A stretch of 64,000 nt of DNA from Escherichia coli (GTDB lineage: Bacteria > Pseudomonadota > Gammaproteobacteria > Enterobacterales > Enterobacteriaceae), in assembly GCF_046105845.1 (NCBI RefSeq), contig NZ_CP151004.1, one strand, 5' to 3'. The translations under genes were made by a program, and so were the position numbers. Numbering within the stretch: position 1 is the first letter of the stretch; every line of letters begins with the position of its first letter. Below, piece after piece: positions 5,344 through 11,799 of this stretch. The notes under the pieces were generated by a model. That model saw only the letters and a list, made by a program, of their open reading frames with translations. It was not told the DNA's origin and did not search any database.

Positions 5344-5874
5344 TTAGCTCATCGCTTCGAGAACCACACCGTCTTGTTCCATCTGGTCGAGACGGGAGAG
5401 CAATTTGCGGGTGATTTGCTCGAGCTGATCTTTTTCTGTTGTGCTGAGCGCGGACCAGAGTTGATGCAGGCAGTTATGCTGCGGTGGTAAAACCTCGCGC
5501 AAAAACTCGTGACCTTTTTCCGTTAATTGCAGATGCAGGCAGCGGCGATCGTTATCGCTTTCACGACGTTCAATCCAACCGCGTTTTTCCAGTTCATCGG
5601 CAATACGCGTCGCGTTGGTACGGGATGATCCAAGAGCACAACTCAATTCAGAAGGCTGAATACTGTGGTTTTCCTGAGACTCCAGCGTAATCAACGCCAT
5701 AAACAACGTCTCGTTAATCCCCTGAGCCTTCAGCATTTTATTGCGGTTCTCCAGCAGCTTGCTTTGCATGTGCATGCAAAGACGGGTCAGAAGGATCTCC
5801 TGATAAGGAAAATCTTCGTGGCGGCTGGCGCGAAATTTTAGCATTTGTTCAATGGGCGTAAACGAACTATCCAT
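5344..5874 (-). CDS. mprA: MarR-family transcriptional repressor MprA/EmrR
   Basis: 176-aa ORF upstream of emrAB, MarR-like wHTH protein. Confidence 0.93.
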
Positions 5875-5964: not shown

Positions 5965-6300
5965 TTATATAATCGCCATCACTTTCCAGGCGAGCCCGTA
6001 GGCCAGCGCACTAAGCAGTGTTGGGATGATAATGCTGCGTGTTTTATAGAAACTGGCACCCAGTACCGCGAAGCCGACCAGCGTGGGCACGAAACGGCGT
6101 GTATCGTGCATCACTTCTGGTGCGGTAGAGACAACCAGCAGAGCGCATATCGAGGCGATGCCAATGGTGTCGAGCAATATGCCTATCGCGCCACGTTTGG
6201 TTGGGCGGGTATTACCCACACGCAGGCGCAGCGGCAAATAGCGGAAGCAATAATTCGCCGCGCCAACCAGTAACCCAAGCAGCAGAACCTCATAGCTCAT
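5965..6300 (-). CDS. ygaH: L-valine exporter subunit YgaH (AzlD-like)
   Basis: 111-aa hydrophobic ORF overlapping ygaZ stop. Confidence 0.9.
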
Positions 6301-7027
6301 CGGGCGCTCCTTGCCAGAATGCCTGGATTAACGCAGTGAGGCAGCCACAGACAATGCCTGCCAGAATGGCGACGGGAATAGAAAATAGCGTTACGCCTGC
6401 AAGGGCACCAACTAACGCTGCGGTAACGCAAAGAGATTGTTTGCGCTGGAAAGAGGCGAGCAGGAAACTCATAAAGAGTGCCGGAAGCATAAAACCTAAT
6501 GCTGCTTCAACGGCGGGATATCCTTGCAGCAAGCCGCTGCCGGAGAATGCCCCTATTACCGTACCAAATACCCACGATGACCATGAACTGAAGGCAATGC
6601 CGATCATCCAGTTCTCGCTCCAGCGGCGATTATTGCGTACCAGTTTTGCGGTTGCGGCGGCAAAAACCTCATCCGTCAGGCCAAATGCCCACAGGGCGGT
6701 TTTCGATTTTTGCAGACGCTGAATAATACGGCTACGCAGTGACGGGCCATACAAAACATGGCGAACATCCATTGCCATGACGGTCAGTGCAGCAACCCAC
6801 AAACTACTCCCGGCTGCCAGCATCGCGGTAATGACGAACTGGCTCGCGCCTGCATAAATGATGCAGGAGAAAAAAACGCTTTCGAGAGGAGAGAATCCCA
6901 GACGGGTCGCATTCAGACCGAACGCAAAGGCCACCGGAATATAACTAATAACAATCGGTAAACTGTCTTTGCATCCTTCCATGAAGGTCGCCGAACCAGG
7001 AGCAGGCTGTGGAGTAGGGCTTTCCAT
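6290..7027 (-). CDS. ygaZ: L-valine exporter subunit YgaZ (AzlC-like)
   Basis: 245-aa membrane ORF in conserved position. Confidence 0.9.
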
Positions 7028-7150
7028 AGAGTGTACGCTTAACGATTGTTAATATTATAAATAGACTGAATGAATATCTTAACCTTATCAGACTGATGGG
7101 CTTCTTAACACCCTTATAAGTGTAAAGCCACGAAAACGGTTGCTGATTGC

Positions 7151-8335
7151 TTAATTTGCGGCTTCCTGACGATGAAAACCTCGCCACCAGACCAGTAAGT
7201 TAACCAGGGCAATCGTCGCGCCAGCCAGACAAACGCCAGCCCAACCGCCATGTTGCCAGGCTGAGGCTGAAATTAGCGAACCGGCGGCACCGCCAATAAA
7301 GTAGCTGGTCATGTAACCTGCGGTCAGGCGATTACGCGCATCAGGGTGTATTCGATAAATTACCGTCTGGTTAGTGATATGCACGCCCTGCACGGTGAGA
7401 TCCAGCACCAGGATGCCGATAATCAGCGCCAGTACGGAAGTGTGACCAAACCAGATCGCCAGCCATGAAAGTAACAGCAGCAGCAGACCGAAAGTTGTGG
7501 TGTGGTGCGATTTACCCTTATCGGCAAAACCGCCCGCCGGACGAGCGCCCAACGCTCCGGCAGCTCCCGCAAGTCCAAACAGACCAATGACGCCATCGCT
7601 GTAATTAAAAGGTGGAGCGGCAAGCAAAAAGGCCATTGAGGTCCAGAGAATGCTGAAGTTGGCAAAGGTCAGGCAGCCCAGCAACGCGCGGGTGCGCAGA
7701 ATTTTATCGCTGATAAACATGCTGAAAACGGAACCCAACAACTGTGGGTAGTTGAGGTGGGTTTCTGATTTCATTTGTGGCAGACCACGCCATAATGCCA
7801 GCGCCATCAGTGCCATTAACACCGAGGCAACCCAAAAGACGGTGCGCCAGCCGCCGAGGTTTGCCAGCAACCCGGCAACGGTTCGTGCCAGCAAGATCCC
7901 CAACAGCAGCCCGCTCATAATGGTGCCGACCACTTTGCCGCGTTTGTCTGGTGAAGCCAGCGTCGCTGCCAGCGGAACCAGAATTTGTGCCACGACCGAG
8001 AATAAACCGGTTAATGCCGTACCGAGGATCATCATCGCCAGCGACTGACTGCTGGCGGTAATCAACATACCGCCCGCTGCCAGTAAGGTCATCGAGACAA
8101 TCAGGCGGCGGCGTTCAAACATATCACCGAGGGGAACAAGAAACAGCAGACCTGCGGCATAGCCCAACTGCGCGGCGGTAACAATAAAGCCCGCCGAACT
8201 GGCGGAAAGGGAAAAGTTACGCGCGATGGTGTCGAGCAATGGCTGGGCGTAATAGTTGCTGGCGACCGCCAGACCGGTGGCGATAGACATCAGTACGATC
8301 AGTGCCGGGCTAAGCTCATGATTAGGTTTAGTCAT
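7151..8335 (-). CDS. ygaY: MFS transporter YgaY (intact here)
   Basis: 394-aa 12-TM ORF; same locus is a split pseudogene in K-12 as far as I recall. Confidence 0.85.
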   Translation of the reverse strand: MTKPNHELSPALIVLMSIATGLAVASNYYAQPLLDTIARNFSLSASSAGFIVTAAQLGYAAGLLFLVPLGDMFERRRLIVSMTLLAAGGMLITASSQSLAMMILGTALTGLFSVVAQILVPLAATLASPDKRGKVVGTIMSGLLLGILLARTVAGLLANLGGWRTVFWVASVLMALMALALWRGLPQMKSETHLNYPQLLGSVFSMFISDKILRTRALLGCLTFANFSILWTSMAFLLAAPPFNYSDGVIGLFGLAGAAGALGARPAGGFADKGKSHHTTTFGLLLLLLSWLAIWFGHTSVLALIIGILVLDLTVQGVHITNQTVIYRIHPDARNRLTAGYMTSYFIGGAAGSLISASAWQHGGWAGVCLAGATIALVNLLVWWRGFHRQEAAN

Positions 8336-8435
8336 TATTTTTGTTCATCAGATGATGATTAAGCTGGAAATCAATAATAGCGGATGTTGATGAATATGGG
8401 ATGAAAGATAGATTGTTGAAATGTGCGGTGTGGTT

Positions 8436-8479
8436 TGTAGGCGTGATAAGACGCGTCAGCGTCGCGCATCCCTGCGCGG
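8436..8479. repeat. REP-like palindromic element
   Basis: tgtaggcgtgataagacgcgtcagcgtcgcgcatccctgcgcgg resembles REP consensus, in ygaY-proX intergenic region. Confidence 0.5.
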
Positions 8480-8489
8480 TTATCAATAT

Positions 8490-9482
8490 TTACTTCTGAG
8501 CTGCCAGCGCCTCATTCACCCAGCCATCGAACTGCTGCTGGTGGGCTTTGATCCAACCATCAACGTGGCCCTGAATATCGCCTTCTGAGGCTTTGCCGTC
8601 ATGCATAATGGCGTTCTGGGCGTTAATATCTGCCACTGGCAACTGCATAATGGCAAACAGTTTCGCTGCCGCCGGATTTTTCTCGGCCCAGGCTTTATTG
8701 GCAACGATATGCATGGTGCTGACCGGGAAGCCGTAATTCGCGCCATTCGGCAGTTTGGTATCGGCATTTTTATCGCCCGGCAGTGCGGAGAACGGCACCT
8801 GCAACCAGACCACATCTTTCCCCGGTTTCAGTTCGTTACTCACCCAGTACGGCGTCCAGGTGTAGTAAAACACCGGCTTACCCTCTTTGTAACGACTGAT
8901 GGTGTCAGCCATCATCGCTGCGTAGTTCCCCTGATTATGCGTCACGGTATTGGTCAGTCCATACGCGGCAAGCTGGTGGTTGATCGCACCTTCGCAGCCC
9001 CAGCCAGGGTTACAGCCGGTTAAATCCGCTTTACCGTCGCCGTTGGTATCGAACAGTTTGGCGATCTTCGGATCTTTCAGTTGCGCGATGTTGGTGATTT
9101 TGTACTGGTCGGCAGTTTTCTTATCGATCAGGTAACCCTGTGCCGCGCCGTTAACAAATACTCCTTCACGATAAAATTTCTTATCGCCACCGGCAGCTTC
9201 GTACATGTTGTCATGCAGTGGCGTCCAGTTCACTGCGGTGAAGGTTGCATCGCCGGAAGCAAGCGAGGTGTAGCCAACGTTGTAATCCACTTCGCTGGGT
9301 TTATTGACGGTATAACCTAATTTCTCCAGCGCGCGGCTGACCAGCAGCGTCTGGAAAGTTTCTTCGGTGATGGTGCTCTGAACCGGATTAACAGTAATGC
9401 CTTTGCCCGGCAGGTCGGCAGCAAAAGTTTGTGTAGAGATAAGCGTGGCAAACGCTGTCGCAAAAAGTACGCTATGTCGCAT
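8490..9482 (-). CDS. proX: Glycine betaine/proline ABC transporter periplasmic binding protein ProX
   Basis: ORF 8490-9524; [21 protein letters not shown] signal peptide; start ATG at 9482. Confidence 0.95.
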
Positions 9483-9539: not shown

Positions 9540-10604
9540 TTACTTAATGAATGGGCGGGTCAGCAGACCGACAGGGCCAGTGGTGTACCAGCGACGGTTG
9601 CCGCGACTGCGTGAGTCGCGCCCAACGGCCTGCGTCAGGCGGTCGAGGATAATGGCGAGGATCACAATCCCGACGCCGCCAACGGTGGCAAGCCCCATAT
9701 CCAGACGACCGATACCGCGAAGTACCATCTGACCCAGCCCGCCGACGGCAATCATCGAGGCGATGACCACCATAGAAAGAGCCAGCATCAGCGTCTGGTT
9801 AACGCCCGCCATAATGGTCGGCATCGCCAACGGTAACTGAACTTTGAACAGCATCTGGCGCGGGCTGGCACCGAATGAGCGCGAGGCTTCAATCAGATCC
9901 GCCGGAACCTGATTAATTCCCAGAATAGTCAGACGGATAATCGGCGGCAGAGCAAAGATGATCGTCACCACCACGCCCGGCACGTTACCAATACCAAACA
10001 GCATGACGATTGGCACCAGATAAACAAACGCTGGCGTGGTCTGCATGGCATCAAGCAGTGGACGAATAATTTTCGCCGCTCGTGGACTTCTCGCCAGCCA
10101 GATCCCCAACGGCAAACCGATGACGATACAGAACAGCAGGGCGGTTAACACCAGCGCCAGAGTAACCATTGCCTGTGACCAGGCACCGATTGCGCCGATG
10201 GCAATCAGCGAAACCAGCGTCGCCACGCCCATTCCGACACCGGAAATTTGCCAGGCGATGAGAGCGAAAACGATAATCGCCACCGGCGCAGGCATACCCA
10301 GCAGCAATTGCTGGAAACCGTTGAGGATGTAATCAACCGGAACGCGCACGCCCTGGAAGACGGGACGGAAATGGGTAACGACCCAGTCGATCCCTTCAGT
10401 GACCCAACTGTCGAGTGGGATCAGCGTTTTATGGAACGGATCGAGAATATTAAAATGCTCGACGTTTGGCGCAGGCGTACTGGTCAGCCAGTCAGCACCA
10501 CCGCCGTCAGTCGGTGCAGTCGCCGGTGTACCCCAGGCGTCTGCGGATTGTGCGGCACTGTCCGCCGCTGGCGTTGTATCCCACGGATTATTTTGATCAG
10601 CCAT
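9540..10604 (-). CDS. proW: Glycine betaine/proline ABC transporter permease ProW
   Basis: 354-aa membrane ORF. Confidence 0.95.
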
Positions 10605-11799
10605 TATTTACCCCCTCACGATCTAAAGCGCGCAGCAGCATTCCTTTCGAAATGATGCCGACATACTGTTGGTCCTCGTCGACCACGGGCACCGCACAGG
10701 GGGCCTGTCCGACATGAGAGAGCAACTCGCTAAGAGGCGTTTGTGCATCGACCGCTAACGGCGCATCAATCAGCGCCGCATCAAGACCTTGCTGCTGCGT
10801 TAACGCGGTTTTAAGCGAATCGATAGACACTGCGCCGACAAACTTATTACCGCGTTCGATGACGTAGCCATATTCGCGATCTTCATCCTGCAATAATTTC
10901 AGTGCCGAACGCGGGCCGAAGCCGGGGGTTTTACGAATTAAGCCGTTCGGTGTCCGGCGAGCAATATCTTTCGCACTGAATACCTGACTAATATCGACGC
11001 CACGGAAGAAGGTACGGACATAATCATTCGCCGGATTATTGAGAATTTCATCCGGTGTGCCGACCTGTACCACTTCACCATTTTGCATAATGGCAATTCG
11101 GTCGCCAATACGCATGGCTTCATCGAGATCGTGGGAAATAAAGACAATGGTGCGCTGATGTTTCGCCTGTAATTTTACCAGCTCATCCTGCATCTCGGTG
11201 CGAATTAATGGATCGAGTGCCGAGAAGGCTTCGTCCATTAATAATATATCCGGATTAATCGCTAACGCGCGGGCTAATCCCACACGTTGACGCATCCCGC
11301 CAGAGAGTTCATCCGGGTAGCTGTGGGCATAATTTTCCAGCCCGACCTGACGCAGTGCATCAAGGGCTTTTTCACGGCGTTCTTCGGCATTAATTCCGGC
11401 CAGTTCCATACCGAACGCAGTATTGTCCAGCACGGTCATATGCGGCATTAAGGCAAAGGACTGGAAGACCATCGCAATCTTTTTTCTGCGCACCTCACGG
11501 AGTTCGGCGTCGGATATTTTGGCAATATCCACACCATCAATCAGCACTTGCCCGCGGGTGGGTTCAATCAGGCGATTGAGAAGGCGTACCATTGTGGATT
11601 TACCCGAACCGGATAATCCCATGATGACAAATATCTCGCCTTCTTCAATGGCCAGACTGGCGTCTTTTACGCCAAGCGATAGCCCAGTTTTTTCCAGAAT
11701 TTGTTCTTTTGAAAGTCCTTGTTCGATATATTTGAAAGCTCGTTGTGGATGCTCACCAAATATTTTATAAAGATTTTTAATTTCTAATTTAATTGCCAT
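10597..11799 (-). CDS. proV: Glycine betaine/proline ABC transporter ATPase ProV
   Basis: 400-aa ORF with Walker [10 protein letters not shown] and C-terminal CBS domains. Confidence 0.96.

Follow-up and report, generated by a model that had tools for sequence, protein, structure and literature searches.

We analysed a 64,000-nt stretch of Escherichia coli DNA (NCBI RefSeq assembly GCF_046105845.1, contig NZ_CP151004.1), hereafter referred to as the window. Between proX and ygaZ lies the gene ygaY, an open reading frame of 394 codons plus a stop (Table 1). According to the ORF listing, its ATG start codon is the first ATG past the upstream stop. A full-length 394-aa frame at this locus had been reported in an earlier note on the window, and the ORF listing agreed with it exactly in coordinates, length and orientation. 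The gene order in the window, proVWX-ygaY-ygaZH-mprA-emrAB, is that of K-12. A 52-codon ORF with a TTG start (8328–8486, minus strand), which overlaps the ygaY start and begins within a REP-like element, was dismissed as a chance frame.

Table 1. Coordinates of ygaY, its neighbours and associated features in the window.
Feature	Position	Strand	Remarks
mprA/emrR	5344–5874	minus	ygaY neighbour, same strand
ygaH	5965–6300	minus	ygaY neighbour, same strand
ygaZ	6290–7027	minus	flanks ygaY
ygaY	7151–8335	minus	ORF call; Pfam MFS_1; same CDS annotated in seven other genomes
Site of the K-12 7-bp deletion	8072–8081	minus	MAFFT alignment; codons 86–88 (Ala-Ala-Gly), TM3, in frame in the window
proX-ygaY spacer	8336–8489	minus	154 bp; 41.6% GC vs 55.6% in ygaY
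REP-like palindromic element	about 8437–8480		just past the proX stop, distal part of the spacer
proX	8490–9482	minus	flanks ygaY
proW	9540–10604	minus	ygaY neighbour, same strand
proV	10597–11799	minus	ygaY neighbour, same strand

The corresponding proX-ygaY spacer of K-12 is 191 bp long (NC_000913.3 2808125–2808315) and carries one extra palindromic REP-like unit of ~42 bp. The putative REP-like element in the window forms two short hairpins at −18 kcal/mol, a modest excess over shuffled sequences (z = −1.5). Since folding beats the shuffles only modestly, no claim is made that the hairpin behind proX is a terminator.

Other parts of the window were also inspected. Between luxS and emrB, two overlapping genes occupy 416–2232 on the minus strand. 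The first encodes 370 aa with a C-terminal AAA_33/KTI12-like P-loop kinase domain (E = 6.9e-33), and the second encodes 235 aa matching RNA_ligase (PF09414, E = 3.4e-28). In K-12, emrB and luxS are direct neighbours separated by 63 bp; the same kinase/ligase gene pair is present in E. coli N3. PADLOC returned no match for the pair, which looks like an accessory RNA-repair cassette. The first 25,000 nt of the window (1–25000) are collinear with ordinary E. coli, with a top identity of 98.2–98.4% among 5426 complete RefSeq genomes, and the ygaY segment is 99.2% identical to that of PCN033, only five genomes reaching 99%. These values suggest either a lineage that the complete genomes do not represent or a locus of mosaic history. 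Positions 25001–50000 consist of variable, repeated or mobile DNA with a median of 8 matching places per genome, plasmids included, and were covered to at least 80% in only three genomes. The matches there were to an IS3-family transposase, the ypjA autotransporter and alpha-amylase-family genes beside recN and lhgO.

Next, we asked what kind of protein ygaY encodes. YgaY matched the Pfam profile MFS_1 (PF07690) with E = 2.6e-41 and a score of 142.2 bits, against a cut-off of 33.4; the Sugar_tr and MFS_4 profiles also scored above their own cut-offs. From 64 diverse relatives, AlphaFold produced a model (pLDDT 95.3, pTM 0.93) with twelve long helices; residues 196–209 form a further, short linker helix. 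The profile match and the model bear out the description of the product as a 12-TM MFS protein in the earlier note. Hydropathy alone, in a crude scan, separated no more than about 10 peaks, since TM8 and TM11 are rich in Gly and Ala and TM9 and TM10 merge. Motif A of the MFS has the consensus G-x-x-x-D-[RK]-x-G-R-[RK], and a variant of it, P-L-G70-D71-M-F-E-R-R-R77, occupies the TM2-TM3 loop of YgaY. Residues L69, G70, D71, R151 (TM5), D272 and N322-Q323 were conserved in at least 90% of the 64 relatives, and R336 was invariant among them. All three marks of MFS membership (the profile, twelve helices in two six-helix bundles, and motif A) were found, and YgaY is very probably an MFS secondary transporter.

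No NCBIfam equivalog reached its cut-off on YgaY, and all scores were far below. The best full-length partial match was PRK03545 (sugar efflux; 63.8 bits vs a cut-off of 401), and Cmx/CmrA (52.5 vs 400) and Bcr/CflA (50 vs 201–303) also fell short. By the same cut-offs, YgaY did not qualify as any of the DHA1 drug:H+ equivalogs SotB, MdfA, Bcr/CflA, Cmx or EmrD. A sequence search of the PDB returned only weak matches, with SotB at E ~5e-4. When the model was compared by structure, the top Foldseek matches were SotB (TM 0.84, rmsd 2.6 Å, 17% identity), MdfA (TM 0.84) and NorA. The model shares the 12-helix MFS fold with SotB (6KKK), MdfA (4ZP0/6EUQ) and NorA (8TTE), at TM-scores of 0.79–0.85 and rmsd of 2.4–4.4 Å, and resembles their inward-open states. 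It differs from them in sequence (15–17% identity) and in one signature. DHA1 antiporters carry motif C, G-x-x-x-G-P-x-x-G-G, in TM5, whereas a pattern search found no motif C in YgaY, whose TM5 reads GTIMSGLLLGILLARTVAG.

The earlier note had described ygaY as a split pseudogene in K-12. This agrees with the annotation of K-12 MG1655 (NC_000913.3), in which ygaY (b2681) is a pseudogene of 1178 bp at 2808316–2809493; in another MG1655 assembly, PGAP flagged the gene as "frameshifted". The name ygaX refers to a former annotation of the N-terminal fragment of K-12 ygaY. Following the check proposed in the earlier note, we aligned ygaY of the window, together with 60-bp flanks, to NC_000913.3 using MAFFT. 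Flanks included, the two sequences differed by 33 substitutions and one indel: K-12 lacks 7 bp that are present in the window, with gap columns at CDS positions 255–261. The loss shifts the K-12 frame, which closes after ~88 codons, while that of the window stays open for 394. The window thus does not carry the K-12-type pseudogene allele, having retained the 7 bp and the open frame.

The 7 bp missing from K-12 are GGCAGCG on the coding strand and lie inside CTGGCAGCGGGCGG of the window, where the coding strand reads ...CTT ACT GGC AGC GGG CGG TAT G.... Because of the flanking GGC...GGC microhomology, the placement of the deletion is ambiguous by 3 nt, and it can be drawn anywhere within the interval listed in Table 1. 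Such microhomology would be compatible with replication slippage. In the AlphaFold model, the site falls in the helix formed by residues 75–94 (TM3). Apart from the lesion, the two alleles are closely alike: they occupy the same proX/ygaZ locus, share ~97% nucleotide identity, and encode the same amino acid at all comparable codons. In the 306 codons 3' of the K-12 frameshift, 26 synonymous and 0 non-synonymous differences from the window were counted. As no further decay has followed the frameshift, the K-12 lesion is recent, with too little time elapsed for more.

We then determined which of the two alleles is the exception in the species. Of 5426 complete E. coli genomes, 5418 contained the 1.5-kb segment carrying ygaY. 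The deletion was counted with a probe of 38 nt whose only possible seed spans the K-12 deletion junction; it matched exactly 353 of the 5426 genomes, all at 100% identity. An earlier 46-nt probe for the junction could seed on the left flank even in genomes with an intact gene and gave 2803 partial matches; its meaningful matches are the 353 of full length, the same count as with the shorter probe. Sixty deletion carriers were sampled evenly, and all 60 had K-12 or laboratory-strain names or K-12-sized genomes, their K-12 ancestry being judged by strain names and genome sizes rather than by phylogeny. They include MG1655, BW25113, C600, J53, TG1, JM109, MC4100, S17-1, EPI300 and ET12567, as well as O16:H48 mouse-colonisation strains. 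The 7-bp lesion is private to the K-12 laboratory lineage.

The intact allele was approached from the other side. Forty records were sampled at even spacing: 36 aligned across ygaY with zero net length change, three came out 7 bp short (HT-946 and two assemblies of MG1655), and one, PCP06021, had a larger ygaY deletion. The lesion in PCP06021 (L007, a seawater isolate; 2196–2850) took out ygaZ entirely, the greater part of ygaY and the beginning of ygaH, so that 159 bp of ygaY remain, joined to a shortened ygaH; it is independent of the K-12 deletion. An intact CDS of 1185 bp, named "MFS transporter", is annotated in RefSeq in seven non-K-12 genomes of varied sources and serotypes: PCN033, O157:H7 Z1814, uk_P46212 (a urine isolate), HS, BL21(DE3), DA33137 and N3. 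The frequency of the intact allele rests on the junction probe, the length-preserving alignments among the 40 records and these seven annotated examples. A probe of 53 nt directed at the intact allele found just 2143 genomes and was not used as a frequency estimate; megablast needs an exact word of 28 nt, which local SNPs break, and the probe undercounts for this reason. Since the deletion occurs in only 353 of 5426 genomes and the sampled carriers are all of K-12 type, the window has the ordinary allele. It is almost certain that ygaY of the window is the intact wild-type form and that K-12 is the exception. The strain-level difference proposed in the earlier note is therefore real, but it is K-12 that deviates and the window that is wild-type.

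We next compared synonymous and non-synonymous changes among ygaY alleles. YgaY of the window has 0 amino-acid differences from WP_000165699.1, the protein of HS, BL21(DE3) and DA33137, although the genes differ from that of the window by 20–38 synonymous changes per 1185 bp; they share its length, start codon and neighbours. Across all ygaY pairs, ratios of synonymous to non-synonymous differences ranged from 9:2 to 38:0, with dN/dS of about 0–0.08 at dS of 0.03–0.15. The comparison with K-12 gave 32 synonymous and 0 non-synonymous differences in ygaY; the corresponding counts were 18/0 in proV, 24/1 in proW, 31/1 in proX and 23/1 in emrA. By these counts, purifying selection on ygaY is as strong as on its neighbours proVWX and emrA. 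Beyond E. coli, identity of YgaY was 98% in E. fergusonii, 98% in E. marmotae, 96% in E. albertii, 99% in Shigella and 93% in Citrobacter, all copies being named just "MFS transporter". Conservation of ygaY extends across almost all complete E. coli genomes and to related enterobacteria. The wider family comprised 1144 clusters at 50% identity (E <= 1e-30), and the source names of the relatives were generic ("MFS transporter" or "predicted MFS family arabinose efflux permease"). One match, a 596-aa protein from a single contig (P0001), was set aside as a probable fusion or assembly artefact.

These data also bear on whether the intact frame could be an artefact of sequencing or assembly, or an open frame by chance, a reading to which we assign virtually no probability. 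The same 1185-bp frame occurs in independent complete genomes, and one protein cluster at 90% identity holds 3984 member sequences. Chance is countered by the Pfam MFS_1 score, by the RefSeq CDS in seven genomes and by the strong excess of synonymous changes. The data already refute this reading.

The ygaY-proximal ~130 bp of the proX-ygaY spacer are AT-rich and presumably hold the ygaY promoter and leader. A simple scan upstream of ygaY detected no sigma-70 consensus site and no convincing promoter or terminator, and the Shine-Dalgarno sequence is weak. In the 123-bp spacer between ygaY and ygaZ, which is 100% identical to that of K-12, a sigma-70-like site (TTAAGA-17-TATAAT, 10/12) lies upstream of ygaZ at 7082–7054 on the minus strand, which suggests that ygaZH may be transcribed independently of ygaY. 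In K-12, the ygaY transcript is low and responds little to osmolarity (Rashid et al., bioRxiv 10.1101/2023.07.10.548347 / PMC10656529). [quoted passage not shown] Expression of ygaY is probably low, and possibly under the influence of H-NS/StpA.

Taken further, these features may mean that ygaY is intact yet transcriptionally silent in ordinary conditions, for instance through H-NS/StpA silencing, in which case intact and broken alleles would be phenotypically equal in practice. The low K-12 transcript, its stpA-dependent rise, the H-NS signal and the DRE-ygaY bridge (Rashid et al., PMC10656529) all fit such silencing, as do the AT-rich spacer (41.6% GC), the scan that found no consensus promoter and the weak Shine-Dalgarno sequence. 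K-12, moreover, shows no known defect from its loss of the gene, and the ygaY deletion strain of the Keio set serves as a neutral control. We nevertheless consider silencing possible but doubtful. The protein is near-frozen within E. coli despite the synonymous divergence given above and retains its high identity in Citrobacter, and the last ~130 bp before the start codon differ from K-12 at only 4 positions. A sequence so nearly frozen argues that the protein is made and matters in nature.

YgaY (P76628) is listed as TCDB 2.A.1.36.3, in the YnfM family (PMC5417439). BLASTP aligned it to E. coli YnfM over its full length (26% identity, 409 columns, E = 2e-20), which is the likeness expected of a member of TCDB 2.A.1.36, the YnfM or acriflavin-sensitivity family, whose activities are dicarboxylate export and an acriflavine phenotype. 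YnfM (b1596; 2.A.1.36.1) has in common with YgaY the motif-A loop, the Arg in TM5 and the His in TM10, and proton-coupled export is the likely mechanism for both. The two differ in context: YnfM adjoins the LysR regulator gene ynfL, and ygaY has no adjacent regulator. YgaY is a distant paralogue of YnfM. Taken together, the evidence is best explained, in our view with high probability, by an ancestral functional allele of ygaY that encodes an MFS inner-membrane transporter of the YnfM branch.

E. coli YnfM is reported to be a CCCP-sensitive, proton-dependent glutarate exporter, and BL21(DE3) with ynfM alone deleted shows no detectable glutarate export (PMC12622518). One could suppose that YgaY is a second exporter of glutarate- or succinate-type dicarboxylates, redundant with YnfM. 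The shared TCDB family, the full-length alignment and the common R151 (TM5) and H319 (TM10) would agree with this, as would the export of glutarate by YnfM in both E. coli and C. glutamicum (PMC12622518) and the presence in the window of the glutarate/GABA catabolic genes csiR-gabPTD ~12 kb from ygaY. Yet identity to YnfM is only 26%, the 12-kb gap to the gab cluster carries no operon logic, and BL21(DE3) has an intact ygaY (RefSeq CDS) and still loses detectable extracellular glutarate when ynfM alone is removed. Redundancy is thus quite improbable, and under those conditions YgaY is not a simple duplicate of YnfM.

YgaY is very probably a 394-residue inner-membrane secondary transporter. It has the canonical two-bundle, 12-helix MFS fold and would work by alternating access (rocker switch) with the proton gradient as the likely driver. 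It would most likely export a small, possibly anionic metabolite. The direction is suggested by SotB, MdfA, NorA and YnfM, the relatives nearest to it in structure and sequence, which are proton-coupled exporters, and is drawn solely from these relatives at 15–26% identity; we give an even chance that YgaY is a proton-coupled exporter. The guess at an anionic substrate derives only from the reported dicarboxylate substrate of YnfM and the near-invariant Arg in TM5. R151, D312 and H319 are candidate residues for binding and coupling.

Transport could also run inward, with YgaY importing a nutrient or osmoprotectant as a proton symporter or uniporter. Several observations are consistent with import: motif C, typical of antiporters, is absent; the best partial matches of the N-terminal half, in NCBIfam and the PDB, are an aromatic acid/H+ symporter and GlcP; and ygaY adjoins proVWX, an operon for osmoprotectant uptake. 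However, over the full length the neighbours in sequence and structure are exporters (SotB, Cmx/CmrA, Bcr/CflA, MdfA, NorA and YnfM), the adjacency to proVWX is not kept in distant relatives, and transcription of K-12 ygaY is reported to be insulated from proVWX (Rashid et al., PMC10656529). We consider an importer unlikely. Three divergent relatives, from Corticimicrobacter, Gilliamella and Salinisphaera, had no informative gene context in common and so gave no hint of a substrate. An Oxidored_FMN gene, adjacent in the locus of one relative and 5 kb away in that of another, was judged a coincidence.

The allele in the window is in itself an ordinary, previously annotated strain difference of little scientific weight: the pseudogene of K-12 is already in public annotation, and so is the intact "MFS transporter", in thousands of genomes. 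The consequences lie in how the gene has been used and studied. Our search of the literature found no experiment on the YgaY protein; the mentions there treat ygaY as a pseudogene of K-12, employ it as a marker or neutral site, or simply list it. Workers on K-12 commonly choose ygaY for neutral chromosomal integration or marking, and also as a control pseudogene. Because ygaY is intact and under strong purifying selection in non-K-12 strains, its neutrality is limited to K-12 and does not carry over to others such as BL21, HS, pathogens and the strain of the window.

A further reading, which we offer tentatively and regard as the less probable outcome, is that YgaY may be a strongly constrained orphan exporter, invisible to functional genomics based on K-12. 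The Keio and ASKA collections, like the phenotype screens, were built on K-12, in which ygaY is dead, so its function would have been missed. If this is true, natural isolates may use YgaY to export a particular metabolite or a toxin, possibly an organic anion, and thereby show a phenotype absent in K-12. Repair of the 7 bp in K-12 would yield an isogenic pair for substrate discovery. In conclusion, YgaY is a conserved transporter whose function has stayed hidden partly through a recent and private lesion of the reference strain.
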